From positions 9,610,001 through 9,674,000 of the forward strand of contig JBHGNT010000006.1 of the NCBI GenBank assembly GCA_043228905.1: 64,000 nt of DNA, given 5' to 3'. The translations under genes and the position numbers were made by a program. The notes beneath the pieces were generated by a model. That model saw nothing but the letters and a program-made list of their open reading frames with translations, was not told the DNA's origin and made no database searches. Positions 449 to 61,747 of the stretch are shown here, in pieces (positions within the stretch are counted from its first letter, which is position 1; each line of letters starts with the position of its first letter). Source of the DNA: Azolla caroliniana. Its lineage: Eukaryota; Plantae; Polypodiophyta.

Positions 449-909
449 TAACACTCACATCATGCATCAAAAGGATCATGACACTCACATTATGACTCAA
501 AAGGATTTGAACCCACGACCTTGTTGTACACATGACAAATCCTTAACCATTGTATTACTATTCTTATATGTATAGTCTCTAGAATATGAAATCTAATATC
601 ATAGGAATATTCTATATTACTCTACATTCTAGAATGACCTAGAATATTCTACATTGTTCTATACCACTAGAACCTTCTAGAATACTCTAGAGATCTTCTA
701 GATTACTCTACATTCTAGGATAACCTAGAATATTCTAGAATGTTCTCTATTACTTATAAATAGGGATCTACCACCCATCCCAAACCTAAATTGGTTCAAT
801 GCCATTTTGTAGCCTATTCTTTGTAATCCATTTTACGCTTCAATATAATAATTCTCTTTCAATTATCTCTCTATCTCTTTTTCTCTCTTTCTCTCTCTCA
901 GTCTTGACA
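441..909 (+). mobile_element. 3' LTR of chromovirus element A
   Basis: Starts TGTCA right after the PPT and ends TGACA. Contains a TATAAATA box, many (T)TCTAGA repeats and a CT-rich U5. Confidence 0.85.
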
Positions 910-1547
910 GTCACTCACACCCGTTGATATTTGTATTCCAGTTCTAGGCGAGGACCACACATGGTTGCTCATGCCCGTTGGTGTTAAATACCTCATCTTG
1001 TGGAAGGGTTACTCCTTGTCTAAGATTTACAAAATGCTTTGGAGGTGATCTAAGATTTTCATCAACAATATCCCCTTAAGCCGATAAACGATTTGGGAAG
1101 GCATCGTTGAAGGGGGGATAATGTCAAGATTCAAACTCTTGACATGACCATGTTATAATCGAGTGTTATGTGTTAACCACACATCTAGCATATAATCATG
1201 TATATACTTCCTCATTGTAGGTTTTAGCTAGCATTATGTGCATAATTTCTCCCTTGTATTATTAACACTTGGCACATGCATGCGTACCTACTACCTACAT
1301 GCTCTATTGTATCACATGCGTGCAACAGGTATGCATGCCACTTAGTATAAATAGTTGAGTTCACCTTGAAGGAATTCAAGGTGAACAACGCCAGTCATGG
1401 ACATATCAATCTAGTATTCTCATTTCGCCCATCTTCTCTCCTTAATCTTCATCTCTATCTTTATGCTCTTGTGTCATTCCGTCATCGCTCCGTCGTAGCC
1501 TCATCATCCGTGCTTCGTCTTAGTTCGCACTTGGTGTGTCCGTGACA
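910..1547 (+). mobile_element. 3' remnant of a second chromovirus (A2): decayed chromodomain, PPT and 3' LTR (1122-1547)
   Basis: Broken frames read 'KYLILWKGY...LQNALEVI*DFHQQYPLKP'. PPT gaaggggggataa precedes an LTR running TGTCAAG (1122) to GTGACA (1547). Element A is inserted into it. Confidence 0.75.
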
Positions 1548-3670
1548 GGCACATTGTCGATTGGGGTGTAATCACGGGGCCGACATTACGGGAAGGACTA
1601 TATGCGTATCAGGCTGTTAAGAAACTACGGCCAATCATTCAACAATATCTTATTGTGCTATTTCCCCCTTGCAGACTTCCCGCCCCCCCAACCAACAAAC
1701 AGACGCCTCCGCCACAATCCGCAAAACGACAGCTAGCGGAGTTAGCCACCACCGAATGGGAAGAAGAGGCACAATCGCCCCGCACCACCAAGCCAACGAT
1801 ACAGCCGGAGCCACCGGCCAGGTGCGCCAAGACACAAACCTCCACAGCAACAGAGGAACAAGAGCCTGCCCAAGGCAGTCCCAGGCCCAAATGGCGAAGA
1901 TTGGATCGAAAAGACAGGGAGGGATTGGTAAAAGATACAATGGCCCCAGTCGAAAACATCGCCACTACAGAGCATACAACCACATTGGAATTAATCTGTG
2001 AGCCACAACCGATCATTACGGCTCAATCACAACGTGGCAAGGGCGTGCTCACAGCCGAGAGCGAAGTCTTAAGGTATCCGGCCAGTATGGATACAACCCA
2101 TGAGTTCGGCACACTATTACAATTTGCAACTACCTACAAACTCATGGGGTTTTTGCCAACACAACAAATAAAAGTCTCTCAACGGATGGCCGAAGAGCAC
2201 GCAGAACAACAAATGATCGAGTGGGCACTAACAAGAACGACGAAAAGTGAGGATGAGGGGCCGCTTGCCAAGGTAGGCAGACAACGGAATGCCGGAATAC
2301 ACCGAATGGGCATTGAGCTACCTCCCTTGAATATGACCCTCGTCGAAGTACACCACGAGTTGGCCAAAGTTAGCATAGGCGCCAAGGATATAGCAACCAA
2401 GAATAAGAATGCCTGGAAAACAATAACACTGACACAGGACCAACTCCAGAAGGCCAAGGAACACATTACACAGTTGGAACATAGCACGACGACGGCAACG
2501 ACCATCCCAGATAACGCGTCAAACACCTTACGAGAAGACCTCGAAGCATAGCAAGCCCTAGTGGCCACAGCAAAGAAAGCTACTCAAATGGCTGAAACAG
2601 AGATTGATCGGCTCCGAGCGGAACTTCGCCAGTCTTCGGATAGGGAAGCAGATGTTAGGGCGAAAGGCCGTCCGGTGGTCAAGACATTGGAAGGCAAGCT
2701 CCAAGTGGACGTCGCAATGCATAACAGAACGAAGGAGGAATATGAAAAGCTATGTGAAGAGGCAAACAAGAAGGACGCTGCAATCGCGGGATTATGGGAG
2801 CTCGCGAAGAAAAAGAAGGCATGGTACGACGAGCAACTGGTACATGAGCGCGTAGAGACGCATGAAGTCCAGGTATGCCCAAACAATGAGATGGGACGGC
2901 TTGAGGAACTTCATTTAAAGGAGTCCTAGTTATGGGCCAAAATGAAGAGTCTTTACGAAGAAGCCGTGGTGGCAAATAAGCGTAAAATAGAGAATCTAAC
3001 GAAAGCTTTAGATGAGTCCCAAGTACACGCCACCTTGATGACAGACCGGATCCGCACCATCCTACAAGCCAATCACGAGAAATTTAATACACAGCCAAAG
3101 GCGGCTATGGACAAAGGATGGGCCGGATGGGCGACGTAGGCCGTGGAGCTACATACATACTGCACGGATAAGGAGAACCGCCGAAAGGACAACAAGGTAG
3201 CCAATCAACACTCATAGGAACTCACACAGCTGATGGAGGAGTTCACGGAAAGCCAGGAAGAGACCTTTCGACAATTGATGGACATGGGCATCGAAACTCA
3301 GAGGGTGGAAGAATTAAAAAAAGCGGAGGCAATGACTGTGCCGGACAATCACGCCATAGAGAAAACCGAGTCCCCGACCAATGACGGGCCTGAAGTCACG
3401 ACGGTGGGCAATCAAACGAGTGCCAAAACAACAGAGGAGCGGCTATTAGAGGGGGAACCATGCCAAGAAGAGCCCTCGACAGAGCTGGAAAAGGTGGTCC
3501 CCAAAGAAGCACCAGCAGAGCAAGCCCAGCCGACCTTCGGCAAAGAAGAGAGAGCGGAAACTGCAGCACCAATTGAGCCAAACAGCGACGCCCCTACGAC
3601 CCTCACGCCACCCTCGGACCACGACACACGGGCAGAGCCAAACATCTTGGACACTTTGGATGACGAATAG
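1548..3670 (+). pseudogene. Extra 3' ORF (ORF3) of the D-family element, interrupted by in-frame stops
   Basis: ORFs 1655-2551, 2561-2929, 2942-3139 and 3233-3670 share one frame, broken by TAG stops. They are homologous to the ORF pieces at 44451-47018. Confidence 0.8.
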
Positions 3671-4185
3671 ACGGACGGGTTCGACGTGCCATGGCACTGT
3701 CCCACAAGTTTGCTAGGTGTTGTCCGTCAGAATAGTAACCACCGGACATAACGTGGGATAAATTAAAATATTGTAAGAAACGAATGTAACGGTTCACACG
3801 AGGAGCGTAACCGACGAGACGCCCTGTGTATATAAAGGGCAGAAATCTTGTGTAAAGGGTTATCGTTGTTTTGAGAGTTCTTTTCTAATATAGTACTATC
3901 TCCCCTGATCTACTATGTAAGTGCCAATGTGATAATTAGTGAGGGTTATACGCTATTAAGAAGTGCATAACTGGAAACGTAAGGTTAAGCATGTTAGCGT
4001 AGTTATGCATCGTTCCTTCGATTGTAGCCAGGAACCTTCACGCCCTGTAGATACGTACCATTCAGTAACAAGTGAGGTATGGACGTACGCAGTACGCCTC
4101 TCTATCCCTTGTAACGCAATCCCTTGACGCCTACCCCGAAGGACTGTGGGTAGACAGTGTTCTAGTCGACAGTACGCCGACAACA
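1548..4185 (+). mobile_element. 3' part of an Athila/Tat-like Gypsy (same family as element D), with 3' LTR 3718-4185
   Basis: Sequence from 1548 aligns with 44680-47065 of element D. The LTR runs TGTTGTCCG to GACAACA and resembles the D LTR start (tgttgtccg..aatagtaacc..cggaca). Confidence 0.85.
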
Positions 4186-5790: not shown

Positions 5791-5919
5791 CTGTCAGCTT
5801 TTTATCCATCTTGGACGGTGGAGATCGAACGCGCCATCAGCGGTGCGACCTGCACCGTCCCTCTCCGCGATTCCCTCACTTGCCCTCTTAAGTATTTGGT
5901 AGTAGTTAGTCACGAGCTG

Positions 5920-6294: not shown

Positions 6295-6756
6295 ATGTCT
6301 TCCGACCATGCCAAGAAGACTGGCAAGGTCAAATGGTTCAACATCACCAAAGGCTTCGGCTTCATCACCCCTGACGACGGCACCGAAGACCTGTTTGTCC
6401 ACCAGACCTCCATACTCGCTGAGGGCTTCCGATCCCTCGCCGAAGGAGAGGAAGTGGAGTTCCTCATCGAGCAAGGCGATGATGGGAGAACCAAGGCCGT
6501 GGAGGTCACGGGCCCGGACGGCGCTCCTGTGAAAGGAGCCTCCAGATCCGACGGTGGAGGGGACGGTTATGGATCGTACGGTGGGCGTGGAGGCCGTGGA
6601 GGGGGGTACGGCGGAGGAGGCGGAGGCGGAGGTTATGGAGGAGGAGGCGGCGGCGGCGGCGGGAGAGGAAGGGGTCGAGGTGGGAGAGGTGGAGGAGGCT
6701 TCGGAGGACGCGGAGGAGGAGGAGGTGGCGACCGCGGCGGCAGTGGCGGTTACTAG
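6295..6756 (+). CDS. CSP: Cold-shock domain protein with glycine/RGG-rich tail (153 aa)
   Basis: '[31 protein letters not shown]...[13 protein letters not shown]...[12 protein letters not shown]' is a CSD with RNP1/RNP2 motifs. Good ATG context (gccATGt). Gly/Arg/Tyr tail. Confidence 0.96.
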
Positions 6757-6776
6757 ATCTGACGCCTTTCCATTAG

Positions 6777-10906: not shown

Positions 10907-11457
10907 ATGGCGTCGCTGCCCCTGTTCTCGCCACAACCCCTCTACTCATTTCAACCCAGACGAACAACCGCTCCTTCTCCCTCATCCTTCCTTCTCTGCC
11001 TCAATTCTAGCCCCTCCAAAAGATGCACCCCTCTTCGCAAAGACGCCATTTTTTTCTCTTTCTCCCCCCTTCTTCATTTCTGCAGCTCTGTTTCTTCATC
11101 TTCTTACTCCCCCTCCTCATTATCATTATCATCATCATCATCATCTTCTTCTTCCTCTTCTTCTACGCAGGATGCTATAGAAAGAGAAGAAGGGATGCCT
11201 ATTCCAAATACAATAACGTTCAGGAGGAGCTCAACACAGAAGCACTATGAGTATTTGACGGATCTTGAGACATTAGGAATGGAGGATTTCTCTTCTGAAT
11301 TGTCTCGGTCTGTGGCTATGTCGATGGGAATCAAACCAGATTCGAACTCTGCACCTTCCACAACACCCGTGTGTATTTCTATAGATGTTTCCAAAGAAGG
11401 AAGGGACCTCAGACTTGATGGTATTGTTAAAACATCCATAGCTCTCCATTGCTGCAG
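10907..11457 (+). CDS. DUF177A: DUF177/YceD plastid large-subunit rRNA accumulation protein, exon 1
   Basis: Ser-rich transit-peptide-like N-terminus (MASLP...), then 'TPVCISIDVSKEGRDLRLDGIVKTSIALHCCR'. GT donor at 11458 (phase 2). Confidence 0.88.
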
Positions 11458-12283
11458 GTAATGCACACATACATGTTAAAACAAAGCATTTGCACTTCTG
11501 TCTTGTAAAAGCATGTAAGAGATAATGCCTTTCTTTTATGTGTCATTGAATTATCAAGCATACACGATGCATATGCTATTTTGTTTTGTGTTTATTGATG
11601 CTTGGATGGTGATATGTTTCTTTTTGTGCCTTTGCATTATCCAGCCCATGAAGCATTCACAAACTCCCTTTGTGGTATCGATGCTTGGGTGCTCTTATGT
11701 GATATTATGTATTTCTGTATGAATCCTTGCAGTATCAATCATAAGATGCCTACATTCACTTGATTCATAGCATTGGTACCTGTAGTGCAGGGACATGCAC
11801 TTCATATCTCTCTGAATCCTTGCATTATCTTGCATTCAATGTGTTCACAATAATGAATCATGATATTAATTCATACATGTCACATGCGGCAATGCGTTTT
11901 ATTATTATTTACTTCCACCTTGCTACCTAAATTTGTGGTATTAATACACATATTATAGTGCATGTCTTGTGTTGCCCTTGCATTAATAGGCATAAGGCGC
12001 ATGAGCTTGCTTCATGATTTTGTAATTCAAACATCAGGTGAGGGAAGAATGATTTTAAAATAGAGGATGTTATGTGGCAGTGCATTTCTTTACATGTTCC
12101 TTGCATACACCACACATTCGCTCCCTTGATTTGAAGAATTAGTAGTTGTGTGCTGGGTATATCTTTATGTTTTTCATGGATCAATAGATTTCTTTATATT
12201 TGCTTGCACTGTTAAGCTATCAGAAACTAGTTTTGTTTACCTATTACCAGCGCTTACATCTACCACTACTCTCTATGAACTAG

Positions 12284-12704
12284 ATGTGGGACTCCTGTCG
12301 GTGAGAGGGTATTTGGAGAATTTAGCCTTTTGCTGACCGAGAATCCAGTTGTTGAGCCGACAAAAACTCGTTTAGGGGTTGTTTTAGGAGGTGATTCGAT
12401 GATGCCAGATGAAGAAATTGACTTGGAAGATGTTTTGGATCTAGATCTTGATGATAAGCTTCACTTCCCAAGAACGGATAAATCCATAGATATATCCAAA
12501 TATATTCGTGATACCGTGCATCTTGAGATGCCATTGCAATGCTTATGTGATCTTCATTGCAAAGGTAAATGTATTGATTGTGGTATCAATCTCAACCAAG
12601 ACTCTTGCAAATGTGATTTGGGTGCACATAAAAAGAATAGACAATCGATATGGGACCCATTGAGAGAGCTTAAAAAGAAACTAGAAAGTGAGGGTGCAAC
12701 TTAG
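12284..12704 (+). CDS. DUF177A: DUF177/YceD protein, exon 2 (spliced product about 323 aa)
   Basis: The AG acceptor at 12283 restores 'CCRCGTPV...FSLLLTENP'. C-terminus reads 'IDISKYIRDTVHLEMP..CLCDLHCKGKCIDCGINLNQDSCKC...WDPLRELKKKL'. Confidence 0.9.
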
Positions 12705-20259: not shown

Positions 20260-22397
20260 TGTCGTGAAGATCTGTCACTACGTGCGGATCGTGAGGCGGA
20301 ACCGCCGAGGTTCTGGACTGGAAGGACTCGAAGTTTGCACAAGCTTTAGCGAGAAAGGATTTAAGAAAGATTGAGATAAGATAAAACGCTTGACTTTAGA
20401 TTGAGAGAGAGGTTAAGATTGAACTCTTGACTTTAGATTTGAAGAACAAGATTGATACATCAATTGGATATCAAATTTCTTACTTTTAATTTCTTGATTA
20501 ATACATCAATTGGATAACGAATTTTCATCTTAATATTAAATTTGATATAAAGTACAAAGCTTGCTTGATAAAAATCCCCTTTCATCTTTTTCCTCTCCTC
20601 TTTTATAGATGCCCTCATGCATTTGAGGGTACAAGACATGCATAAAATGCATGTTTGCCATTTGGCGCTCATGTATTACATGTGGTGCATGATAACCACG
20701 TCACTCATTTTAGCTCTCATGTATGAGAATTTACCTGTAAAGTTATAATGATAAAAACATACTCTCTAAAGAAATGGTTTGGCGTAATGGTAAGCCTATT
20801 GCTTCCTTTCTTGGAGGTGTTAAGTTCAAGTCTTGTTTACATCTATTTCTTTTATGCACAAAATACTATTAGGCTTTTGGACCAAATATCTTAAAGGCAC
20901 CATGCACCGCGATCAACCGACCCGACTGATCCGTCCGATTTGCATCCGTTTGGTCCGGTCCAATCCGCATCCCGAGTCATTTGCCGGTCACCGGCCGGTC
21001 GTTGCTTGCCGTCGCCGGCTCCGAACTGGCTCACCGACTCCGTCGCCGGATGCCACTAGCTCATCTAGTCGCTGCTTGTCGTCACCAGCTCCGTATTGGC
21101 TCACCGGCTCCATCGCCGGTTCAAAATCGGCTCACCGGCTCCGATGCCGAATGCCGCCGGCTCACCAGCTCCATCGCCTATTCTGAACTGGCTCACCGGC
21201 TCCATTGCCAGATGCCGCCGGATGCCGTTCTCCGGCCACCGGATGCTGTCACAATCGCCGGTTTCGTCTGGTCACCAATTGCCGGATCCATTCGGTCACT
21301 GATTGCCGGCTCTATCCGGTTTCTAGTCCTGTTATCGACTGGTTTGAGTTTCTTCACCGGTTGGTTCATGCACTTAACCACATCCGGCGACTTAGCCACA
21401 TATGTCCATCTCAACAAAAGTGGCTCACGTGGAACTATTTTTTTTGTGCTCTTAACACATAGATGAAATATGATGGATCTCAATCTGCTTATATAGCTAG
21501 AGCCTAAACTTTCCTATCTATGTGGGATATTTCACAGTTTTCGTTTTCTCTTTTTCTTTTGCAAAACTTCAAACCCACATAAGTTGACACTTAGATGTCT
21601 GTTTCTTATGTAGTAAAGTGCATCTGAAAGCTCTTCAAGAACTCCATCTTCCCGCACCAAGATATTAAGCTAATATAAAATAATATCTTCACTATTATTG
21701 TTTTCGTACTCGATGTCACATGTTTTATGCAATTTTCATACCATTGCCGAAAATCTTCACGACATCCACCCCCAGCCAAACCGCATGTCCTTCGGTACGT
21801 GCCAAGAAGAGAGAATGTGAGATTTCGGCAATAGTGATCAGCATGACTCCTCAACGTCAAGCATGTCTGTTTCTTTGTACTCGAATCATTGTTGCCACTC
21901 AATCCACCATATCATTCATTTTTTCTTTGCTTTACCATGACTTGTTATCATGGCACCTGTCTCTCTTCTTGAGGATAATCGTTTAAGCCTCATGAATGTT
22001 CCACCTTCATCTCGGCCATCTCCTTGGTCACCTAACTTTCCTTTATCATCATTTCTCGTCTCATGCTTGCCTTTCCTTATCCTCACTAGCCTCGACCGGG
22101 TGTCGCGGCTCGTCTACTTCAACCTTCGTCTAGGCCGGTTCAACTTCTGTCTGTCTCGACCAATCAACTTCCGGCTTGGTCGGCCTTCGTCCGTATTCGC
22201 ATACGGCCGAATCGGACTCAGACGATTGACTTTCAACTGGGTCAATTTACATCCGGTTTTCGGTTGGGTCGGACCCGGTTGATCAACTCTCGTTCGGTTC
22301 GGCTTCCATTCGGGTCGGAATACCAACCTCGTCATCTTCCATCCGGATTGTATTCCGGTTCTTCCTTTCTTGCCACTATCTGGCTCTTCATTGAACT

Positions 22398-25104: not shown

Positions 25105-25611
25105 CGATCAACTTCGGTAGGTGTGCTCTCGGAACCGGTATCGGTTTCAAATTCCAACCATCGGCTCTATTGCCCTTGGATCAACACATCCGATTTCTTG
25201 TGGGAAAAATGTGAAAGCCTTCCCATGTCTCTCAAGTGTCAGGAATAGTACTAAAACAGAGATGGAATTAGTACTAAGAACAGCAGTACTATTAGTACTA
25301 AGAGGACGGGACTGCGTAAGATTCCCGAGAGAGGAAGTGAGAAGAGGAGAGAGAGAGAGAGAGAGAGATAGCGAGAATGAGAGAGATGATGACAGCAGCT
25401 ATATATTATGTGAAAAGATAAGTACAAGCGGCTAAGAGGCTTAAGACTGGCGTTGAACCAATTTGGTTCAAAACAATGCCTTGTGCCTCCTTTTATAGTG
25501 TTTTTAGGAATAATCTTGAAGCTTCTAGAATGTTCCAGAGAGATCTGGAATATACATCAATTTTCTATGATAAAGTACAAATGAAAATAATATCCTACAA
25601 AATACAATTCC

Positions 25612-25675
25612 TAATGTAATGGTAAGAGCTCGACCCATGTAGCATAAAGTCATGGGTTCGAGTCTTGCCATGACA
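25612..25675 (+). promoter_or_regulatory. tRNA-like A/B-box module at the U3 end of the F LTR (copy ending at 30920)
   Basis: TAATGTAATGGTAAG ... GGGTTCGAGTC, ending at the LTR terminus. Confidence 0.55.
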
Positions 25676-25686
25676 CTATCTCCCCC

Positions 25687-31903: not shown

Positions 31904-31947
<44 letters not shown>

Positions 31948-32168
31948 ACTCATTCCTTCTCTCAAAGTTCGACACCTCTCATAGTACTAATCCTTCTCTG
32001 TCTTAGTACTATTCCCCAACAATAGTACTAATCCTTCTTTTAGTACTAATTCCTTCTCTGCCTTAATAGAGTTCCTGACAGTTTGAACCGATTTCGACTA
32101 CTAGTCTCCCTCTTCCTTCTGTCTCCCTCCTTTCCTACTAGTCTCTTATTTCCCTTTTCCTTCATCCC

Positions 32169-33338: not shown

Positions 33339-33364
33339 GTCCAGCCAAAATAGGAGCCGTTTGG

Positions 33365-36300: not shown

Positions 36301-36922
36301 AGTGTCCACAAATCCTTGCGCGGAGGATCGTTTGGAGCGGTTACGCAAGATACAAGCGGATTTATCTACTCAACTCCAGCAAGCTCAACAATCACACAAG
36401 GACTACGCAGATCGTCATCGACTTCCATCCAGTTTTAACATTGGAGATCGGGTGTGGCTGCTACGACGACACATCAAGACTACTCACCCATGTGAGAAGT
36501 TGGATTATCGGCGATTAGGTCCTTTCCGTATTATCGGGAAGATTAATGATGTCGCTTTTCGTCTCGAGCTACCTCCGCAACTTCGGATACATCCGGTGTT
36601 TCATAGTTCTCTCCTCGAACCCTATCACGAGAGCACTATCCCAGGACGTACTATACAACCTCCACCTCCTATCGAGCTCGAAGATGGACCTGAGTATGAG
36701 GTCGCTGCCATCCTCGATTCCAAGATTGTTCGCAACAAGCTCTACTATCTAGTCGATTGGCTAGGATATAGTCCCAGCGAGTGTACTTGGGAACCGATCG
36801 AGAATGTGACCAATGCTCGTGCTCTTCTAGAAGACTTCCATCGACGATATCCCGAGAAACCGGGTCCTCAATCCAAAACGACTCGTGAAACTCGTCGTTT
36901 TAAAGGGGGGATAGTGTCATAA
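33365..36922 (+). CDS. pol: Pol of chromovirus E (PR-RT-RH-IN-chromodomain), -1 frame relative to gag
   Basis: All catalytic motifs present. The frame is open from about 33311, overlapping the gag end. Confidence 0.96.
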   Translation: MDSPRSVQPISGSIPSKQVSDVFVAQVAVSTKSTPPVHTLALLDSGANSCFMDRNFARAHQISLRKLPCPASVVVIDGRPIASGNIIEESEPVNIVLDNLTCVVSFNIISIPEHPIVLGLPWFELHDPDIDWRTREIRLRQTQGSTQKVATISLRQLREEGRKEEMFLFAISVQPSSTTKEESTVQLPEKYRQYADVFDKVQANTLPHHRPYDCAIDLQPRKEPPWGPIYNLSPTELEVLRAYIEENLENGFIRHSKSPAGAPIFFVKKKDGSLRLVVDYRGLNKVTVRNRYALPLISSLLERINGARFFTKIDLRGAYNLVRIRPGDEWKTAFRTRYGHFEYTVMPFGLTNAPAVFQHMANDIFRDLLDDFLIIYLDDLLVYSKTQEEHDSHVLLVLKRLREHGLYAKLEKCSFGSNQVEFLGYVISSEGISMDPAKVKTVIEWHTPRSVRDVQCFLGFANFYRKFIQNYSKIVLPLTQLTRKGQSFIWSKETDMAFESLKKAFTSAPILGHVDPEKPFIIEADASDFALGSILSQQGNDEKLHPVAFHSRKFDAAEINYEIHDKELLAIVDSFMQWRHFLEGSPHQVTVFSDHKNLAYFQDARVLNRRQARWAHFLTRFDFKITYRPGKHQGKADALSRRSYLTPRPGEPAFDNQKQVILGPARLQAAQVFDMPVDSDITNTIREDLKTDAFAQAILAQIDPSRASCSQSQSPGTDYRQFKYCDGLLFFKELLYVPNGSCRLRVVQNCHDTYTAGHFGSTKTLDLVQRSFWWPRMRQFVEDFVRTCDTCCRAKMPRHHPYGLLEPLPIPSKPWQSIALDFITDLPVSKGFSAILTVVDRYTKMAHFLPCTKEISSEDTAEIVMREVCRHHGLPDNIISDRGPQFVSKFWKHLFKMLKVTCNLSSGYHPQTDGQAERTNQTLEQYLRCFLNYHQNDWADILQFAEFAYNNAIHASTKVTPFYAYTGYHPRWCVLETPEVSTNPCAEDRLERLRKIQADLSTQLQQAQQSHKDYADRHRLPSSFNIGDRVWLLRRHIKTTHPCEKLDYRRLGPFRIIGKINDVAFRLELPPQLRIHPVFHSSLLEPYHESTIPGRTIQPPPPIELEDGPEYEVAAILDSKIVRNKLYYLVDWLGYSPSECTWEPIENVTNARALLEDFHRRYPEKPGPQSKTTRETRRFKGGIVS

Positions 36923-37204
36923 CTAGACTCGAACCCATAACCTTTTGTTACACGGGTCGAGACTTTACCATTAGGTTATGAATTGTAATTTGAAGGATAT
37001 TATTTTCATTTAGGTTTTATTGGGAAATTGATGTATATTCCAGATTTCTCTGGAACATTCTAGAAACTTCAGGAGTATTCCTGAAGACACTATAAAAGGA
37101 GGCGCAAGGCATTAGTTCGAACCAAATCGGTTCAACGCCAGTCTTAAGCCTTCTAACTACTGTTGTATATCTTCCGTCATATAATACATATATCTTTCGC
37201 ATCA

Positions 37205-37252
<48 letters not shown>

Positions 37253-37385
37253 ACTCATTCCTTCTCTCAAAGTTCGACACCTCTCATAGTACTAATCCTT
37301 CTCTGTCTTAGTACTATTCCCCAACAATAGTACTAATCCTTCTTTTAGTACTAATTCCTTCTCTGCCTTAATAGAGTTCCTAACA

Positions 37386-38366
37386 GTCAAGACTCCTTAT
37401 TCGTGCGATGGTTGCTCCATTATCGAATACTTTGGTCTCCATCCGAGATGATGTGATATACGGTTGTCCTAGGATGACAGGATGCGACACCGATTCTTGC
37501 ACGAAGAAGTCTTGATCCATCTCCACATCCCCGATCGTGACTTTAACATTGAGACAAGCTCCGTACAAGTCCTTCGTAGTCTTTGATGCCGCGCGAATCT
37601 TCCATCCGTGATTTGTATTGATTGGCCATCTTCCTTTTTTGTAGAAGTCGGTTGACATGAGGTTGATCTCCGAGCCGTGGTCGATCAAGGCTACCACGGT
37701 CTCTTTCTTCTCCCTGATCTTCACCGGCGTCTTTGTTGTCGCTCGTGCCCAATGAGGTCGAGTATAATGTCTGTCCACCATATCTTCATCGACTTCGTCT
37801 CTTGCCATCGTTATGGCATTCGTTTTTGCTTTTTGCGGCATCTCTTCTTCCTCGTCCGATTGTTGTCTTTTTCTCTTTACAAGGTCCACGATCGTGTCAT
37901 GGAACTCCTTCGTAATGCCAAGCAATTCCCTCAAGGACAAAGTCACGTGGTTATCAAGAACACGTTCTTCGAGAATCTTCTTTAGGTCTGTTGTCTGCTC
38001 TATGTCCGACCTTAGATTATAGGTAGGCATAGCCGTTGTCCTCCGAGTGGGGTCTTCGACACCAATCTTCACGGGCCGAACCGTTTCTTCGACTCGTTTG
38101 CTCGACTTCGCTTTTCGGCTTGCGTCTCCTTCCTCCATTTGCAAGGTTCAACTCGTCTCTGCATCTTCTTTCTTTTTCGCGTTCCTTGTTTCATGTCTTT
38201 TTGATGGGCCTTGCTCTTCTATTCTTTTTCTCTTTTCTTCGATGAATACTTCATGGTTGTCGCACATCACTTCCGCGAGTATAGTGTTGTCATCTACCGG
38301 ATCTGACCACCCGGTTATACTTTGCATGCTTCGGTCCGCAAGCTCCACCTCATTCGATGTGACCTT
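37386..38366 (-). pseudogene. Element B gag C-terminus and aspartic protease
   Basis: 'VALIDHGSEINLMS...VILGQPY'. Confidence 0.82.
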
Positions 38367-39095
38367 TGTTGTCCGCCGGAATAGTAACCGACGGACAAAA
38401 GCGTAGGAATAAGAAATTATATAAGAGCATAACGCATGTAACGGTTCACGCAGGAAGCGTGAACGGCTAAATAGACCCTGCATATATAAAGGGCAGAAAA
38501 CCTCTGATGGAGGTGCGTGTAATTATGGGGAATGTAAAGAAACGCCTGATAATAGAATTTTATCTTCTATGATTTCCTGTGTATAGCTACGACTAATTCA
38601 GTTTGTGTGTCTTGAATACCTAAGCATTTAAGTACGTAAGTGTAACCCTTGATAGGGATTCGGTTGTAGCCGTCTCCCCTTATACGCTGATAGGGTACAA
38701 GGATCCTTCCCTTACGCATTACGCTTAAACACCTGTTCATTGTTCCACACCCACTTTGAGGTCTAGGTCGAAGGTCTGACCACGGACCGTGTTCCTAAAC
38801 GGCAACACTTTTGGCACGCTTGGTGATCTGTGTTTTCTCACAGACGAGCAACAACGAATGGATGTTTAGCCACAGACGACCTAGAGAACCAACATGACAA
38901 GACCGGCCAATAACAAGGTCCGTCACACGCCAGGCAGAAGAATGCGCACGACAAAAGCCGCACCTCAACGACCTCAGTACTGCCTACCGTGAGTGCAAAG
39001 GGGATTCTTCGCTCCCCAAATACCTCGACGAGACGCGGGGACCACGCTCACCACAACCACCCTGTGGTCTTTCCCGACCCGCCGTAGCTCCCACT

Positions 39096-44108: not shown

Positions 44109-47018
44109 ATGGCTCACCGCCCAATGAACCCTAAGCCACAAAAAGAAGGAAACAGAAGATTTTCTACACAAAGCAGAAACCCATCTTCTAGCTATTAGCG
44201 CTCCCATCTCTCCTCCCCCTCACCTTCTCCCCCATCCTATCTCAGAGCTCCAACTCACCGCAACCAACCGTCTCCTCCCCACGAACCTACTCTGGCAATG
44301 CCGATCTTCATCTCTATTGCCCTACGCCGATGGCTCGTGGAGAAACGCCTGGATGGTTACATCCGGGTCGCACCTCCACACCCGGATGCCATGGACATCG
44401 CCAGGAAGCTTAACATCGACACGGTCACCAACTCTTCCATCTAGAAGAAGTTGGACCTATCCTCATTAGGCGAAAGACATTTCGAAATACCTCCTGCAGA
44501 GGCACTACAACGGTATTTTGGGCCATATTCCTCCTCCGCCAAGGCCTATAGAACAAAGCAGATTCCGGATCCCTTCTTCCGTGAAGTTGCCAAGTTCTTG
44601 CTAGAAGTCGGTTGCGTACATGTCAACGCATATGGGATGCCTAAGCAGAAGGCGGGCATCATTATCGATACATTTGAAGGGTGTGCCGTCGATTGGGGGG
44701 TCATCACAGGGCCATCGTTAAGGGAAGGCTTGCATGCGTACCAAGCAGGCAAAAAGCTCAGGCCGATCATCCAACAATACCTTACGGTACTAGTTCCACC
44801 CTGAGGCCTGTCGGGACCACAACCCAGCCAACCCACGGCCCTAGAGTGGGAAGAGGAACCCCAACCCGCCCAGCCAGACCCAAGGACAACACCTCCTACC
44901 AACTAGCCGGACACACGGACAACGCAGGAGGAACAGCCGGCATGTTCCATGGAAACAACCCTAGAGCCAGACACTGAAACACGGCAGGAAAGCCCCAGAC
45001 CAAAACGGCGCAGATTGGACAAGAAAGATGGGCGGGGGTTGGTAAAAAATGCCCCCATGGCAACAGAGACACCGACCAAAGGCGATGGCTCCGCAGTAGC
45101 GGAACCCAATACCACCTTCGAAGTCATCCGGGAACCACGGCCGATTATTACGACCCAGTCCCAATGAGGGAAGCCGTATTGACGGCGGAAAGCGAGGTTT
45201 TGGCATATCCGGATATCCCGGATACGGCCCACGAGTTCAACGCCCTCTTGCAGTTCGGTACTTCTTTTGAGCTTATGGAGTTCCTGCCAACGCAATAGGT
45301 CAAAGCCGCCCAACGAATGGCCGAGGAGCATGTAGAACGCCAGATGATCGAGCGCACCCTAACACAAACAACAGAGAGCGACGATGAGGACCGGCTAGCC
45401 AAGGTCGGGAGACAGAGAAACGTCGGGGTACGCCGAGTGGGGATGGAGATACCCCCCTTAAACACGACCCTAGTCGAAGTCCATTGGGAACTGGCAAAGG
45501 TCAGCACGGGCGCCAAGGAGATGGCCATAAAAAAATAAGAGTGTCTGGAAGAAGGTTAAACTGACCCAAGCCGAACTGCAAAAAGCCAACGCACGCATCG
45601 CGGAGTCGGAAGCTCACGCGACTACAACGCAACACGCAACCCCGCCACTGAACCACGTCATCGATGCTCTAAAAGAAGAAATCGAGGCTGAGACCGCCAT
45701 TGCCTCAAAAGCAAAAAGGGTCGTGCAACTAGCGGAATCAGAAATTGACCGCCTTTGAGCAGAACTACGCCAATCCTCAAACAGAGAAAAGGAGATACGG
45801 GCTAACGGCCGGAAGGCAGTAAAAACCCTTGACGAGAAACTCGCTATGGAGGTAGCTCAGCACATCCGGACAAAAGATGACAACGCCCAATTACGGGAGG
45901 ACGCGAAGAAATCGGAGGCGGCAATAGCGGGACTCCGGGCCTTATTAGAAAAAAAGAAGGTATGGTTCGATGAGCAGTTGGTGGTTGAACAAGACAGAAG
46001 GCATCAGCTCGAAATCCGCCTAAACAATGAAATGGGGAGATTAGAAGAACAACATGCAGAGGAATCCCAACTATGGGCAGGCCTGAAGGCCATGTATGAG
46101 GAAGCGGCAGTGGATAAACAGCAGGAAATCGCAAATCTCCAGAAGTCGATGGAAGACGCACGCAACCGTTGCCAGGCCATCACAGATAATATGCGGATCC
46201 TTCTCCAAACAAATCGGGAGAGGTTCACAACGCAATTTAAAACGGCGCTGGACAAAGGATGGATGGCGTGGGCAACCCAAGCAGCGGAATTGCACGCTTA
46301 TCGTGCAGACTGGGAGAACCAGCGAAAAGACGGTCGAGGTTTGCATAAACTAAATGAGGAGAGCATTGCGGCCGTACGGGAGGACCTAGCGCAAGACTAT
46401 CGTGTGCTAGCAGACCAACACTCCGAAGAACTCGCACAGCTCTTAGATGATTTTGGTGAAAGTCAGGAGGAGCTATTTCACAAGAGCACACATGCCGGCA
46501 ACACGCGCACAAACGAGGAATCCAGCGCGACGCCAATTCCGGGCACAACCGAAGAAGAGGAACCTCAGGCCCGATCACCAGAGATGACAAGGATGGAGAA
46601 TAGTGAGGACCGACGAGCGGAGTTCCCCACAGGACCAGACAGCGAAACCACTACACAACAAGAGGTCCAACCGCACGAGCCCACACTATCATCAGACCAC
46701 ACGGAGAACGATGCGAACTAGGCGGAATCTCCGCCCCACTCCCCGGAACATACAAAAACGGCCGACACCATGGAGGACATAACAATGGAGGCAGAGCCGT
46801 AGCCGACTGCAAGCACGACAATGGAGAAGCCCAACCCACTAGCTCAAGAAGAGCCCATCGTACCCGGACCACCCACACACGGCGACGGCGACTCTGGGAG
46901 AAACCAGCCCGACCAAACAGAGGAGCCACACCACGATGCACCTACGGGCCCTACATCACCTCTGGACGCGGACACCGCAGCAAAGCCGAACATCCTGGCC
47001 ATTTTGGAAGAGGATTAA
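44109..47018 (+). pseudogene. Extra 3' ORF (ORF3) of element D
   Basis: Pieces 44451-44804, 44949-45167, 45317-45538, 45846-46721 and 46821-47018 are homologous to 1548-3670. Includes a coiled-coil region. Confidence 0.75.
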
Positions 47019-47506
47019 CGAGATGGGTCTGACGTCCCATGGCACTGTCTCAGAGGCGTGCCAAGTGTTGTCCGCCATAATAGTAACCGACGGACAAAAG
47101 CGTAGGAATAAGAAATTATATAAGAGCATAACGCATGTAACGGTTCACGCAGGAAGCGTGAACGGCTAAATAGACCCTGCATATATAAAGGGCAGAAAAC
47201 CTCTGATGGAGGTGCGTGTAATTTTGGGGAATGTAAAGAAACGCCTAATAATAGAATTCTATCTTCTCTGATTTCCTGTGTATAGTTAGGGCTAATTCAG
47301 TGTGTGTGTCTTGAATACCTAAGCGTTTAAGTACGTAAGTGTAACCCTTGATAGGGATTCGGTTGTAGCCGTCTCCCCTTATACGTTGATAGGGTACAAG
47401 GATCCTTCCCTTACGCATTACGCTTAAACACCTGTTCGTTGTTCCACACCCACTTTGAGGTCTAGGTCGAAGGACTGACCGTGGACCGTGTTCCTAAACG
47501 GCAACA

Positions 47507-48917: not shown

Positions 48918-50462
48918 GTATCGGTTGATCCTCGATTTGATCCTTCTTGCCGCCTCTTTAACGTCGGGTTCACCACTTAATTATGTTGTGAAGATCCGTC
49001 ACTACGCGTGGATCGAGAGGCGGACCCGTCGGGGTCAGTTCTTGACCGGAAGGACTCGAAGTTGGCGTTAGCTTTAGCGAGAAAGGATTTAAGTAGATTG
49101 AAAGAGAGAAAGATTGAGTTAAGATTGAACTCTTGACTTTAGATTTGAAGAACAAGATTGATACATCAATTGGATATTGAATTTCTTGCTTTTAATTTCT
49201 TGATTAAAACATTAATTGGATAAGGAATTTTCTTCTTAATATTAATTTTGATTTAAAGTACAAAGATTGCTTGATAAAAATCCCCTTTCATCTTTTTCCT
49301 CTCCTCTTTTATAGATGCCCTCATGCATTTGAGGGTACAAGACATGCATAAAATGCATGTTTGCCATTTGGCGCTCATGTATTACATGTGGTGCATGATA
49401 ACCACGTCACTCATTTTAGCTCTCATGTATGAGAATTTACCTGTAAAGTTATAATGATAAAAACATAATCTCTAAAGAAATGGTTTGGCTTAATGGTAAG
49501 CCTATTGCTTCCTTTCTTGGAGGTGTTAAGTTCATGTCTTGTTTACATCTGTTTCTTTTATGCACAAAATACTATTAGGCTTTTGGACCAAATATCTTAA
49601 AGATACCATGCACCGCGATCAACCGACCCGACTGATCCGTCCGATTTGCATCTGTTTGGTCCGGTCCAGTCCGCATCTCGAGTCGCTTGTCGTCGCTGGC
49701 TCCGAACTGGCTCACCGGCTCAGTCGACGGTTCAAAACAAGCTCACCGTCTTCGATGCTGGATGCCGGCGGCTCATCCAGTCGTTGGTTGTCGTCGCCAA
49801 CTCTGAACTGGTTCACCGGCTTCATCGCCGGTTCAGAACTAGCCCGGCTCACTGGCTTCGTCGTCGGTTCCGAACCGGCTCATCGGCTCCGTTGCTAGAT
49901 GCTGCTGGATGTCGTTCACCGGTCAACGGTTTCGTCGTCGGATGCCGTCACCGTCGCCAGTTTCGTCCGGTCATTGGTTGCCGGATCTATCCAGTCAGCG
50001 ATTGCCAGCTCTATCCGCTTTCCGGTCCTATTATCGACCGGTTTGAGTTTCTTCAGCGGTTGGTTCAAGCACTTAGCGACATCCGACAACTTAGCCACAT
50101 ATGTCCATCTAGACAAAAGTGGCCCAACTCGAAATATTTTTTATGTGCTCTTAACACATAGATAAAATATGATGGATGTCAATCTGCTTATATAGCTGGA
50201 GCCTAAACTTTCCTATCTATGTGGGATATTTCACAGTTTTCGTTTTGTCTTTTTCTTTTGCAAAACCTCATACCCACATAAGTTGACACTTAGATGTCTG
50301 TTTCTTATGTAGTAAAGTGCATCTTCAAGACCTCCATCTTCCCGTACCAAGATATTAAGCTAATCTAAAATAGTATCTTCACTATTATTGTTTTATATTA
50401 TTCATACTCGATTTTGTGTGTTTTATGCGATTTTCACACCATTGCCGAAAATCTTCACGACA

Positions 50463-51466: not shown

Positions 51467-52120
51467 GATGCATCATTAGATTCCTCTGTAAATGAGGCCT
51501 TTTTGCAACTCCAATGTATCATGACATGGGGCAAATATGGAGGCTCACGTTGTCGTGCCTTTCGGCTCCGGATCGTTTGCGTGAGTCGGGTGGGAACCAC
51601 TGGGGTTTTGGACTAGGAAGAGGAGAGTTTTAAGGCTAATAAGAATATAAATATGTTGTAAGAAAGAGTTATAGCAAACTCGTGAATCCCACGAGTGTAT
51701 TGTATTAGATTAATCAATATGAATATAAGAATATAAACTTCGGTTGAAAGAGAATGATATAGAATTCTCGTGAATCCCACGAGTATAGTTTATTAATTGG
51801 TGTTTTTTAGAAACATATCCAGTTTCCAAATATTTTTCACACACAATTACATTGTGCTCCCCATCCTTATGTAGTAGTGATGAGGAAGTCTTAGTAATCC
51901 ATGCTTTTTCTCTAACTATAGACCCCATGCTTTTCCTATAGATAGACTATATGCTTTATCTAAAGTGATCATGCTTTTTTCTAACTTGTGCGTTTTTTAT
52001 CATGCACGCTAGATGTGTATGTGTAGCTTTTTCTTTTGTTATGCGTTTTTCTAATGTTTATCCTAGCGTGAATTTACCTTTCTATGTGGGACATCTATTC
52101 ATGCTTTAACACTAATGAAA

Positions 52121-52188
52121 TGCTAGTGTAATGGTAAGACATTACATTATTAACATGGAGGTGCAAGGTTCGAATCTTGCCCTATGCA
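52121..52188 (+). promoter_or_regulatory. tRNA-like Pol III A/B-box module in the LTR of C (copy at 54914-54981)
   Basis: A-box-like TAGTGTAATGGTAAG and B-box GGTTCGAATC inside a gcaag/cttgc stem, with tRNA-like spacing. Confidence 0.6.
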
Positions 52189-52287
52189 TGTTCCATTTAT
52201 TTTGCTATTTTCTTCTATTTCTTCATTTTTTATTGAATCTAATACTATATACGTTTTTCACGTAGTGTACAAAATACACTACGACAC

Positions 52288-54330
52288 TCACCCCCTCCAA
52301 ACCCGCACATCCTCCGGTATGTGCCGAAGCTGTTGGTGTTTGTTAGTCTCCTCCGTCCGGTCTCTACCCGATTGGTTTCGTTGCCGGCTCGTAGTACCCT
52401 CGACTTCTCTTGTTATGTTGACTTTGTCTCTCCATTTGGAGCACATCCATTCTTTCCACCCGAACCATTGTCGACATCCGATCCACCATAGTCTTCGTTC
52501 GCTTTTTGCATGGCCCACTTGGTCCTTGTCATCCGCGGTAGTATCTTTTCTTGCCCTCTTTCTTTTCTTCATCAATCTCGACTTCTTTTCGGATTTTCGG
52601 TTTAGTCGGATTAGCTTACTTCCGATTCGGTCTCGTCGGATCGTCTTTCGTTTAGTTCGGCTTCCTTTCCGATTTGTATTCGGTCGATCCGGACTCGGTT
52701 GATCGGTTTTTACCGATTCAGTGCTCTTTTGGGTCGGTTTCTTTTCTTTTCTTTTCGTCCGGATTTGCTTTCTTTTCTTCGTTTTCACCTGCCTTGTCCG
52801 GTTCGACTTTCGGCACTTCTTTCCGTTGTTCGCTACGTAGGTCCTCCGATATGTGCTCGTTGTTCGGTCCTCGTGTGGTTGTAATGCATGCTTCTTTTCT
52901 CGCCGTAGCGCGTGCTTCTTTATTCGCCATAACACGCGTTTCTTTATTCGCCGTAGAGCGTGCTCTGTATTACGCGCTTCTCCCGTCGTAGACCCGACCT
53001 CCGCATTGTCGCACTTTCTTTTAGATTGGAATTTCGGATGGATCATTTTCCATCCGAACCGACTTCCGACTTTACCTTCCTCGCCGCCATCTCCCGTCTC
53101 TCCGGTCTCACGTTGGTTCTCGGACACAACCGCCGAAGTCTCTAGATATTGTTGGCATGAATCCTCAGTATTACCTTCTTTCGTAGTTTCACCCTTAGCA
53201 TTCTTCTCGGCTATCTCTTCATCGTATTCGTCGGCTTCGACATTCGTTTTCTCTCCGCCACCTTCCGTCTCTTCGGTCTCACGTTGCCTTTCGATCGCAA
53301 CCGCCGGAGTCTCTGGAATCAGTGGTGGGGAAGTCTCGATATGGCAATCCGCCATTGATTCGTCCATAGCCACCTCCGATTCGATTTCGTCTTTTGTGGC
53401 TACCTCCTTAATCACATCCGCTTCACACTCTTTATCTGCATCAATTATGCAAACATCTATTATGCTTACCCCTTTTTGACCCGATGTCTCAGGCACTTGT
53501 ATCCCGAAATTTCCTTCTACACTTAAATTATCGGCCTTATCCTTCGCCATCGTTCTTTCACAAGACGAGTGGGTGTCTTGTTCCACTCTTTCTCCCGTGG
53601 TACCATCATGTTGTATTTCGGCCTTCATATTGGCTTCATCGTTTTTCCTCAATCGACCATCCTTCATGGGCCATGTCGTTGTTGACGAGATTCTCAGCTT
53701 CCTTTCATCATGTCTTCGGCATACCCTTTCGACTTTGGCCCAATCCTCGGTAAGGCCGTTCGCACCGTCATCATCTTCGAGTTCGATCCCAATGTCCATC
53801 CTTTCTTTCCGATCGATCGATCTTACGAACATTAAGACTTTATCTTCTCCCACCAATCTTCGTTCCCGCTCCGAGAGTCGAGCAAAACGATGCTCGAACT
53901 CTAGGAACGCTTGCGTTGCACTTCGGTGAGTCTTCTCCGACGCCACCCATTCGTCGAATTCTCGTCGATCTCGTCCCGTCCATCTCTCATAGTCATATGC
54001 CTCCCGTAAAGCTTCTTCAAAGGACTCCCATGTCGAGTTTTGTTGTTGTATCTTGTGGATTCTCTCTTGTAGTTCGTCCGAGGCCACCCGACTAAAGGAT
54101 ATCACTTGCAATCCTTCCGGTATCCGATATTGCATCATCTCCGCCTTATATTCACGTAGGTAGCGTGACACACCCTTACCGTTGAATTCCCCGTTTCGTC
54201 GCAGAAGCAGCTCTACTGCCGCCTTCATCTCGGACATCGCACGTTGTTCTTGTTGCATCCGCTCAAACATTATCATCATCATGTTCATCGCCTCTTGTTG
54301 ATTCTCCATCTCCTTGCCACCCGCCTTCAC
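52288..54330 (-). CDS. Gag-derived ORF with acidic middle and K/R-rich C-terminus (up to 680 aa)
   Basis: N-terminus is homologous to B gag ('GEFNGKGVSRYLREYKAEM', 'ANGLTEDW'). Open from PBS to PPT; no pol motifs. Confidence 0.8.
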   Translation of the reverse strand: MKAGGKEMENQQEAMNMMMIMFERMQQEQRAMSEMKAAVELLLRRNGEFNGKGVSRYLREYKAEMMQYRIPEGLQVISFSRVASDELQERIHKIQQQNSTWESFEEALREAYDYERWTGRDRREFDEWVASEKTHRSATQAFLEFEHRFARLSERERRLVGEDKVLMFVRSIDRKERMDIGIELEDDDGANGLTEDWAKVERVCRRHDERKLRISSTTTWPMKDGRLRKNDEANMKAEIQHDGTTGERVEQDTHSSCERTMAKDKADNLSVEGNFGIQVPETSGQKGVSIIDVCIIDADKECEADVIKEVATKDEIESEVAMDESMADCHIETSPPLIPETPAVAIERQRETEETEGGGEKTNVEADEYDEEIAEKNAKGETTKEGNTEDSCQQYLETSAVVSENQRETGETGDGGEEGKVGSRFGWKMIHPKFQSKRKCDNAEVGSTTGEARNTEHALRRIKKRVLWRIKKHALRREKKHALQPHEDRTTSTYRRTYVANNGKKCRKSNRTRQVKTKKRKQIRTKRKEKKPTQKSTESVKTDQPSPDRPNTNRKGSRTKRKTIRRDRIGSKLIRLNRKSEKKSRLMKKRKRARKDTTADDKDQVGHAKSERRLWWIGCRQWFGWKEWMCSKWRDKVNITREVEGTTSRQRNQSGRDRTEETNKHQQLRHIPEDVRVWRG

Positions 54331-55095
54331 GTCGGGTTCACCAACTGTGTCGTGCCTTTCGGCTCCGGATCGTTTGCGTGAGTCGGGTGGGAACCACTGG
54401 GGTTTTGGACTAGGAAGAGGAGAGTTTTAAGGCTAATAAGAATATAAATATGTTGTAAGAAAGAGTTATAGCAAACTCGTGAATCCCACGAGTGTATTGT
54501 ATTAGATTAATCAATATGAATATAAGAATATAAACTTCGGTTGAAAGAGAATGATATAGAATTCTCGTGAATCCCACGAGTATAGTTTATTAATTGGTGT
54601 TTTTTAGAAACATATCCAGTTTCCAAATATTTTTCACACACAATTACATTGTGCTCCCCATCCTTATGTAGTAGTGATGAGGAAGTCTTAGTAATCCATG
54701 CTTTTTCTCTAACTATAGACCCCATGCTTTTCCTATAGATAGACTATATGCTTTATCTAAAGTGATCATGCTTTTTTCTAACTTGTGCGTTTTTTATCAT
54801 GCACGCTAGATGTGTATGTGTAGCTTTTTCTTTTGTTATGCGTTTTTCTAATGTTTATCCTAGCGTGAATTTACCTTTCTATGTGGGACATCTATGCTTT
54901 AACACTAATGAAATGCTAGTGTAATGGTAAGACATTACATTATTAACATGGAGGTGCAAGGTTCGAATCTTGCCCTATGCATGTTCCATTTATTTTGCTA
55001 TTTTCTTCTATTTCTTCATTTTTTATTGAATCTAATACTATATACGTTTTTCACGTAGTGTACAAAATACACTACGACAACGCTTCACACATTAT

Positions 55096-60556: not shown

Positions 60557-61035
60557 ATTATGCTACGCATGTTGCACCTAACTTCAAAACCATATTCTTT
60601 GCAGAACGGGGAAATCGTACACATCGATGCATGTTAGAGTCCATACCGTTATGTGCCATTCAAACCATTGCTTCCATGCGACTTAGCTCACATGCATTGC
60701 GATGTGAGACAGGGCGTTGGGGCACAAGTGATGAGAGTGGTCAGCTATGGACTCTTTGCCCTAAACAAGTTCGCGAGTCTGAGTATCACACTTTGATACA
60801 ATGCTCCGCCTTTGATCACATTCAACCATGCTTTCCACATCTCTTCGACCGAGCCCAATCCTTGCATGAATTCCTCTCACAACCACAATGTGCACTCTCA
60901 ATTGCAACATTCATTGGTAAAGTTCTTGAACATCGAGAGTCACTACTCACTTTCACACGTATCACATGAAATTTAATATTTTTGGTCTCATAGGTCATAT
61001 TTGACCTTCGAAGACAATAATATAATCTATCTATC

Positions 61036-61038
<3 letters not shown>

Positions 61039-61088
<50 letters not shown>
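61039..61088. repeat. (CT)n(CA)n compound microsatellite
   Basis: Directly visible. Confidence 0.95.
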
Positions 61089-61747
61089 TATCGTGGCTTT
61101 CGGCTCCGGATCGTTGCGTGAGTCGGGTGGGAACCACTGAGGTTCTGGACTAGGAGAAAGAAGAATATGAGATAAGGCTAGTAATCAATAGGTAGAAAGA
61201 GAGGCAAGTTATGAATCTCGTGAATCCGATGAGTTTAGTATCTTTAATCAATATTTAGATAGTAAGAGACAATTTAGATGACAAATTCGTGAATCCCACG
61301 AATATATTATATTGGTCCTTCCTTACAAAATAATCAACAACCAAATACATCTTTCTCTCTTCCGTATATGGTGATGGAAGAGGCTAAGCATAGCATCATG
61401 CTTTCCCTAAATTGTTTATGCACGCTACGTGTGCATGAGTTGCCTCCCCTCAACCATGCTTTCCATTTCCTAAATAAAGTGTTCATGCACGCTAAGCATG
61501 CATGAGTAACTTTTCTTTTGTTTGCTTGTTTATTCTAGATAAAGTTTTCACCCCCTCTAAAAGTGCATGATCTGCCTTATTGTAAAAGTAGGCATACATA
61601 TAAGTCATATATCACTTATGATAAGTTATTACAATACTAAAGTTTGGGATATTTACATGGAGGTACAGGGTTCGAATCCTGCCCTATGCATGTAACAATC
61701 TTTTCTTCTATTTACAAATTTGTCTCTTCACCCGGTGAGAGACTCTC
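61089..61747 (-). mobile_element. LTR of the C family, interrupted by Copia K
   Basis: The first ~75 nt match the C LTR start (tcgtg..tttcggctccggatcgtt.gcgtgagtcgggtgggaaccactg). Shares catggaggt..ggttcgaatc.tgccctatgcatgt. Confidence 0.8.

Follow-up and report, generated by a model that had tools for sequence, protein, structure and literature searches.

The closest described counterparts of the feature reported here are the Helenus elements, miniature retrotransposons with terminal repeats (TRIMs, here TRIMp3; Kojima 2024, PMC10886601). As far as the accessible part of that report goes, these are short non-coding elements of 311 to 1263 bp whose long terminal repeats (LTRs) contain a tRNA-derived sequence; its conservation is centred on boxes A and B, it does not constitute a functional tRNA, and the insertion of a short interspersed element (SINE) into the LTR is proposed as its origin. 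One plant family, from Selaginella, is included, and "not a few" LTRs of Repbase are stated to resemble part of a tRNA, the analysis given there covering TRIMs only. The Cassandra and Ajax TRIMs also possess a promoter of a small-RNA gene for RNA polymerase III (Pol III) inside their LTRs, and foamy viruses, which are autonomous retroelements, harbour Pol III microRNA cassettes with A/B-box units in theirs (accessible text of PMC10886601 and PMC3993851, respectively). Furthermore, tRNA genes (tDNAs) are described as boundary elements with TFIIIC at B-boxes, and yeast provides the established case of Pol II promoters being silenced by adjacent tRNA genes (tRNA gene-mediated silencing; PMC13711678 and PMC8136502, in the portions available). 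Here we describe a module consisting of an A-box and a B-box which resides in antisense orientation in the U3 region of Gypsy retrotransposons of two lineages, within 64,000 nt of DNA from Azolla caroliniana (contig JBHGNT010000006.1, positions 9,610,001 to 9,674,000; henceforth "the window"). The window is plant DNA which largely consists of nested LTR retrotransposons.

As in Helenus, tRNA-derived boxes A and B are situated inside the LTR, and for Helenus, too, the function of the boxes is putative in the accessible part of PMC10886601. In the Helenus consensus LTRs inspected (SMo and three ToGe), however, the boxes are in sense orientation and able to transcribe the element, whereas the modules of the window are antisense and their hosts are 5.7-kb autonomous chromoviruses and Phygy-like elements which keep a TATA-type Pol II promoter. 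The promoters of Cassandra and Ajax differ in being 5S-derived (type 1) and in transcribing the element itself, which is non-autonomous (same source, within the same limits). Foamy virus cassettes, from what is available of PMC3993851, yield a structured, terminated RNA giving rise to microRNAs, whereas the present modules exhibit no conserved hairpin or terminator. With tDNA and B2-SINE boundaries as well as with tRNA gene-mediated silencing the module shares TFIIIC-type boxes adjoining a Pol II promoter and a proposed action at the DNA level; yet in the accessible parts of PMC13711678 and PMC8136502 the boxes belong to loci of the host or to SINEs inserted on their own, whereas here the unit, whose activity is predicted, travels with the LTR as a fixed part of it.

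All eleven sites named in the original prediction are present at the place and on the strand given there. They lie in the U3 of Tcn1-type chromoviruses (A, E, F and, decayed, A2) and of Phygy-like elements (B, C and, with a decayed A-box, X), which bears out the claim of two deep lineages, self-priming chromoviruses on the one hand and elements with a Trp-type primer binding site (PBS) and an NCGN target on the other. In element E, oriented on the plus strand, the module occupies 31624-31677 of the 5' LTR (31614-32080) and 36925-36978 of the 3' LTR (36915-37385), both on the minus strand. In F, which lies on the minus strand, it is found on the plus strand at 25612-25665 (3' LTR, 25237-25675) and 30857-30910 (5' LTR, 30482-30920). 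The 3' LTR of A (441-908, plus strand) harbours it at 503-557 (minus strand), with a T4 run immediately past the B-box, while the decayed module of A2 (1127-1187, minus strand) is placed at the outer end of an LTR at 1122-1547 (plus strand) and shows a spacing of 50 and the exchange C56T within its B-box. In B, on the minus strand, the modules are located on the plus strand at 20780-20833 (3' LTR, 20260-21764) and, with two B-box mismatches, at 49486-49539 (5' LTR, 48984-50462). In C, equally on the minus strand, both boxes of the plus-strand module at 52124-52177 (3' LTR, 51551-52286) are canonical and a T4 run follows 22 nt downstream; the copy in the 5' LTR (54348-55079) lies at 54917-54970 (plus strand). 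The LTR X (about 61090-61747), which is related to that of C, has its module at 61627-61679 (plus strand) with a canonical B-box and an A-box devoid of its GG. Module and Pol II promoter are arranged back to back in A, E, F and B, the module being about 110 to 200 nt upstream of the TATA box; for C and X a clear TATA box was not called. From the B-box to the end of the LTR it is 16 to 73 nt in the chromoviruses, about 120 nt in C and about 940 nt in B, while the inner spacing is constant. Between module and TATA box, arrays of TTCnnGAA/GAAnnTTC are visible in A, E and F (window 605-745, 31750-31780 and 30765-30790) and also in the U3 of L034 and L040, two of the related loci (designated by L numbers) considered below. 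We take these arrays to be heat-shock-element-like, and their occurrence suggests that the elements might be heat-inducible.

The window was scanned with a preset consensus corresponding to the textbook motifs (TRGYNNARY(N)GG for the A-box, GGTTCRANYCY for the B-box), at most one mismatch per box being tolerated. This strict scan returns eight matches, all within LTRs and all antisense, with an A-to-B distance of 43 (seven matches) or 44 (one match) as in tRNA genes; the module thus conforms to a type-2 Pol III promoter in consensus as well as in spacing. Sixty block-shuffled windows give a mean of 0.82 matches and a maximum of 4. Of the window's 11 LTR families, five show a strict antisense match and none a sense match, compared with a mean of 0.047 and a maximum of 2 in 1500 shuffles, so that the expectation of box scores far above shuffled controls holds. 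The statement that every named LTR contains the module stands in its strict form for A, E, F, B and C; A2, however, is weak, X retains the B-box half only and the second copy in B carries the two B-box mismatches mentioned above. A profile trained exclusively on seven chromovirus modules, among them that of A (40.9 bits), assigns 32 bits to C and B (32.0 to the 3' copy of B, 27.0 to its 5' copy) and 21.8 to X, the best of the 60 shuffled windows reaching 23.3. The 16.5 bits of A2 are within the range of shuffled maxima, and its homology is argued from its relatives L040 and L037. A loose B-box pattern finds 13 matches in the 64 kb, comprising the 11 module sites and two more at 1840 and 11348, the latter within an apparent host coding exon. 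Neither ARAGORN at default settings nor Rfam calls any tRNA across the whole window, and relaxed ARAGORN produces hundreds of noise hits. In a 241-nt stretch the C module is colinear with positions 8-63 of the Rfam tRNA model, but its 13.4 bits do not reach the gathering score of 29; module A does not match the model. As an unplanned positive control, the profile assigns 41.4 bits to a canonical tRNA-derived head outside any retrotransposon (L092:14288-14342, plus strand), which resembles the head of Helenus-1_SMo. A sense tRNA-like stretch in the LTR of a distant element (L077:8116-8170, plus strand) is borderline at 23.3 bits, and no such match is present in its close relatives. Two related copies of an A/B-box-like pair with a spacing of 42 were further seen in antisense in the protease-reverse transcriptase linker of pol (L034:583-635 and L034:5907-5959, minus strand); under the profile they remain within the shuffle range (16.6 and under 13 bits).

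A comparison of eight divergent chromovirus families (E, A, L022, L024, L026, L034, L040 and L031) reveals that, as predicted, the boxes are more conserved than their surroundings. Mean pairwise identity amounts to 0.68 in the A-box, 0.88 in the B-box and 0.86 at the variable-loop positions 44-48, while the spacer reaches 0.36 and either flank 0.32. Since the boxes served as anchors, the anchoring was repeated on 150 shuffled sets, which yielded 0.42/0.43/0.29 (maxima 0.58/0.58/0.49). The standard deviation of the spacing is 0.5, compared with 3.0 in the shuffled sets. As the families are related to each other, these identities are to be read as descriptive contrasts and not as independent trials. 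The degenerate N positions within the boxes vary like the spacer (0.29 and 0.42), and outside the module the U3 of distant families hardly aligns. Conservation extends beyond the textbook boxes to position 20 and to the variable-loop positions 44-48, which were not used as an anchor. Although the U3 is CpG-poor, the CpG of the B-box is retained in eight of the 11 families taken as representatives (E, F, L022, L024, L026, L040, L031 and C), the other three (A, L034 and B) have the tolerated CA and none has TG. TG occurs in A2 and in the low-coverage single copies L025 and L028, which were excluded from the representative set, and L086 is damaged otherwise.

Relatives were collected by an integrase-chromodomain alignment against metagenomes (best 80 of 549 confirmed stretches), the loci being picked by protein and not by motif. 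The LTR start could be scored in 61 of the 80 and not in the other 19. Of the scored loci, nine share 64% identity or more with E in the integrase-chromodomain part, L021 and L034 among them constituting one family, and all nine contain an antisense module in the first 150 nt of U3 (score of at least 16 of 19). Among the other 52, which are more distant, a single one scores as high (L098, with a spacing of 48), while L031 and L040 show weaker yet recognisable modules. In a quick version of the tree, which does not include L086 among its rows, a single group of 12 rows (Shimodaira-Hasegawa-like approximate likelihood ratio test, SH-aLRT, 91) comprises the strong carriers; 11 of its rows are carriers and the twelfth is L023, whose LTR is cut off. 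L031 is placed just outside this group, and L040 clusters with L037, L046 and L042, which lack the module. Tree and module pattern imply an old age of the module within this chromovirus branch, with more than one instance of loss or decay. A B-box match is absent from the 19 relatives found in the viral collection. Since neither viral contigs nor genome contigs gave any further Phygy-like LTRs, the evidence for that lineage consists of B, C and X along with public contigs aligned to C. The LTRs of B and C align neither with the chromovirus LTRs nor with each other. The two lineages may have a common origin of the module or may have captured different tRNA-derived heads.

We give an even chance to the reading that the module represents a backward tRNA-gene-type promoter in the U3 of two Gypsy lineages which probably acts as a TFIIIC/TFIIIB docking site on the DNA and would thereby shield or open the element's own Pol II promoter. 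A tRNA gene or the tRNA-derived head of a SINE would have entered a 3' LTR and then been copied to both LTRs, the boxes being maintained from then on by purifying selection on replicating lineages. TFIIIC would bind to the module and place TFIIIB inward of it, in the interval before the TATA box, which lies some 110 to 200 nt further in (A, E, F, B). The ensuing barrier or nucleosome-free effect would benefit elements residing in nested, silenced chromatin. The antisense orientation itself may stem from the removal of sense insertions rather than from function.

A number of observations weigh against this docking-site reading. The strict scan of the window yields no match in the LTRs of H, Copia and the Gypsy-type elements D and G; for Copia, D and H this absence had been noted before, and the cases of D and G show Gypsy-type LTRs without it. 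The module is also missing in L037, a multi-copy sister of L040/A2, and in L029, L032/L035, L042 and L046; given these families and the decayed states of A2 and X, it is dispensable. The A-box residue G10 is poorly conserved in the chromoviruses (identity 0.32). The claim that the module is always antisense stands insofar as all strict matches are antisense and none of the window's LTR families has a sense match. The bias has no statistical standing, though: the chromovirus copies are largely of common ancestry, as are probably the Phygy-like ones, which leaves about two independent events. Since adjacent tRNA genes can repress Pol II promoters, the sign of the module's effect could go either way. 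Points on both sides come from contigs of public runs aligned to C or F, which show neither strand nor level. In favour of the reading, the depth on the B-box half of the C module exceeds that of the flanks roughly 6- to 25-fold in all four runs, which means that many repeats share that part only; on the other side, these repeats may be SINEs rather than LTRs. Among the contigs on C, the box-breaking exchange C56T (TG) accounts for 26 to 30% of the depth and is thus commoner than the tolerated G57A (CA; 6 to 13%) in all four runs. Hence, individual copies are not protected, and there may be a high-copy, successful subfamily with a broken box.

The retention of the CpG at the level of families along with decay at the level of copies fits selection on replicating lineages and free decay of copies once inserted. 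A-box variants of at least 4% in the C contigs fall on tolerated or free positions (among the 40 of 45 rows listed), and the contigs on F have the canonical G as majority letter of A-box position 10 in three of four runs (best-supported 40 of 222 rows). The B-box core is intact in all seven high-coverage contigs and damaged in three of four low-coverage single copies; this contrast is not counted as evidence, since in collapsed contigs the private decay of single copies would go unseen wherever it occurred.

Whether the module acts through an RNA product or as a DNA motif bears directly on the rival which survives best. We regard it as unlikely that the module is a transcribed Pol III unit whose RNA, either short or running antisense from the 3' LTR through the polypurine tract into integrase, tunes or limits the element via small RNAs. 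Both boxes and their exact spacing are retained, as initiation requires, Pol III small-RNA genes are driven from the LTRs of foamy viruses according to what is available of PMC3993851, and in seven of 17 modules (B, C, X, A, L024, L026 and L086) the first T4 run follows the B-box by no more than 25 nt and is still part of the LTR. Over all modules, however, it is found 0 to 1363 nt past the B-box, in the remaining ones 24 to 1363 nt, and in E, F, L020, L034 and L031 it is not reached before the LTR end (46 to 1363 nt). Stable folds are predicted for F (z -5.0) and C (z -3.2), but folds differ among families (z -5.0 to +0.7), those of A, L024, L026 and L031 being no better than shuffles, and no common fold was found. 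The spacer, the would-be body of such an RNA, is not conserved. The tRNA stems do not covary (0.199 compared with 0.195 in shuffles), and 55.4% of their cells are paired, compared with 55.1% in shuffles. Neither the T-arm-like hairpin nor the Pol III transcript of the original prediction is therefore supported, given the lack of covariation, of a common fold and of a common terminator. As tRNA stems, fold and terminator are not conserved, selection is likely to act on DNA motifs and not on RNA, and the sequence evidence favours a role at the DNA level over one of an antisense RNA. Plant tDNA flanking signals are weaker in non-angiosperms in the accessible text of PMC13437025, so that the lack of a fixed upstream motif says little.

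It is quite improbable, in our estimation, that the module binds TFIIIC and Pol III but dampens the neighbouring Pol II promoter, as a built-in form of tRNA gene-mediated silencing which would keep the element quiet until stress induction. The divergent Pol III/Pol II geometry, the silencing established in yeast and the heat-shock-element-like arrays of A, E, F, L034 and L040 are in line with this explanation; long-term selection for self-repression in two lineages, however, is harder to explain than selection for expression. Even less credence is due to the possibility that the motifs are kept for some other reason, be it as sites of Pol II factors or as an LTR-end structure in reverse transcription or integration, their likeness to tRNA being a leftover of origin. 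The conservation of positions 44-48 and 20 would agree with this, as would the complementarity of part of the variable loop to the first bases of the LTR in F, L020, L024, L026 and A2. E (sense strand), L022 and L034 do not show this pairing, though, and B and C, with modules situated about 940 and 120 nt inside the LTR, could not form it; moreover, conserved and free positions track the A/B-box pattern. The view that old insertions of a SINE or a tRNA gene persist as a neutral relic, seen in antisense only through the removal of sense ones, would accommodate the losses and decay in L037, A2 and X, the accumulation of C56T in copies and the mere two or so independent orientation events, but is least probable of all, as boxes and spacing persist while spacer and flanks are near background identity and the U3 of distant families hardly aligns elsewhere.

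Further candidate roles were rejected. A functional tRNA gene, to which cloverleaf stems and an anticodon loop would belong, is argued against by stem pairing and covariation at shuffle level and by the lack of any ARAGORN or Rfam call across the whole window; a primer function by the self-priming of E and F and the Trp-type PBS of B and C; and a promoter for the genomic RNA by the antisense orientation. Nested insertions adjoining a module, as would be expected of a landing pad for Pol III-seeking elements, do not occur within the window.

Regarding the host elements, E (31614-37385, plus strand) is an intact Tcn1-type chromovirus encoding gag and a polyprotein of protease, reverse transcriptase, RNase H, integrase and chromodomain; its LTRs are 99.8% identical, it is flanked by a 5-bp target site duplication (TSD), and its self-priming site at 32083-32094 is complementary to its own R region at 31823-31834. 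F (25237-30920, minus strand) is likewise intact, with reverse transcriptase, RNase H, integrase and chromodomain, LTRs of 99.8% identity and a 5-bp TSD. Both measure 5.7 to 5.8 kb and have intact gag and pol. A and A2 are the 3' ends of other chromoviruses, recognised by their chromodomain ends only. The Tcn1 clade of mosses and club-mosses is characterised, in the accessible part of PMC6317226, by a chromodomain following the integrase and by self-priming in place of a tRNA PBS. E and F are called Tcn1-type because they match these features. B (20260-50462, minus strand) is an older Phygy-like element with LTRs of 90% identity, a 4-bp NCGN TSD and remnants of reverse transcriptase and RNase H, into which F, E and D are nested; its named relatives are from Riccia and Adiantum. 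C (51551-55079, minus strand) is a young, gag-only Phygy-like element of 3.5 kb with a gag-like open reading frame (ORF), LTRs identical across 732 aligned nt and an NCGN-type TSD with one mismatch. The Trp-type PBS of B and C is presumably that for tRNA-Trp. A 4-bp NCGN TSD together with a tRNA-Trp PBS is the Phygy signature as far as its description is accessible, and B and C were assigned to this class from these features. The elements as such point to a host which is probably a non-seed plant. Pieces of the B polyprotein, one with DUF4100, are present at 37383-38147 and 30773-31549 (minus strand), separated by the nested insertions F, E and D. At 47030-47065 and 38808-38830, in element D, a purine tract is missing before the 3' LTR, and the start of the element's own PBS recurs there in inverted form, 2 nt away from the LTR. 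An unclassified repeat occurs in two related copies (1499-3845 and 44688-47198) whose ORFs match no Pfam family. Two likely host genes, both recognised by eye and on the plus strand, encode a cold-shock-domain glycine-rich protein (6296-6757) and a YceD/DUF177-like protein (about 10908-12700).

In agreement with the original prediction, a literature search aimed at the feature, which did not extend to Repbase entries or to most subscription journals, retrieved no account of A/B-box modules set in antisense in the LTRs of autonomous Gypsy elements; the phenomenon may have been glimpsed earlier, in the remark on Repbase LTRs cited above. The present modules extend the TRIMp3 idea from non-autonomous elements with sense boxes to autonomous elements with antisense boxes, where the promoter cannot transcribe the element. 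A standing question is how the promoters of LTR retrotransposons which land in silenced chromatin remain usable. The chromodomain of such chromoviruses presumably steers them to silenced chromatin, and a conserved two-box motif at a fixed place of U3 would provide one answer which is directly testable by point mutation. More tentatively, and with clearly less confidence than we place in the docking site as such, the sequences may indicate that autonomous LTR retrotransposons of non-seed plants have domesticated a tRNA-gene promoter at least twice independently, as an outward TFIIIC insulator which would render them expressible in heterochromatin and make them mobile TFIIIC sites shaping host chromatin. 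If TFIIIC does bind, the genome would receive mobile boundary sites in large number from families of very high copy number.

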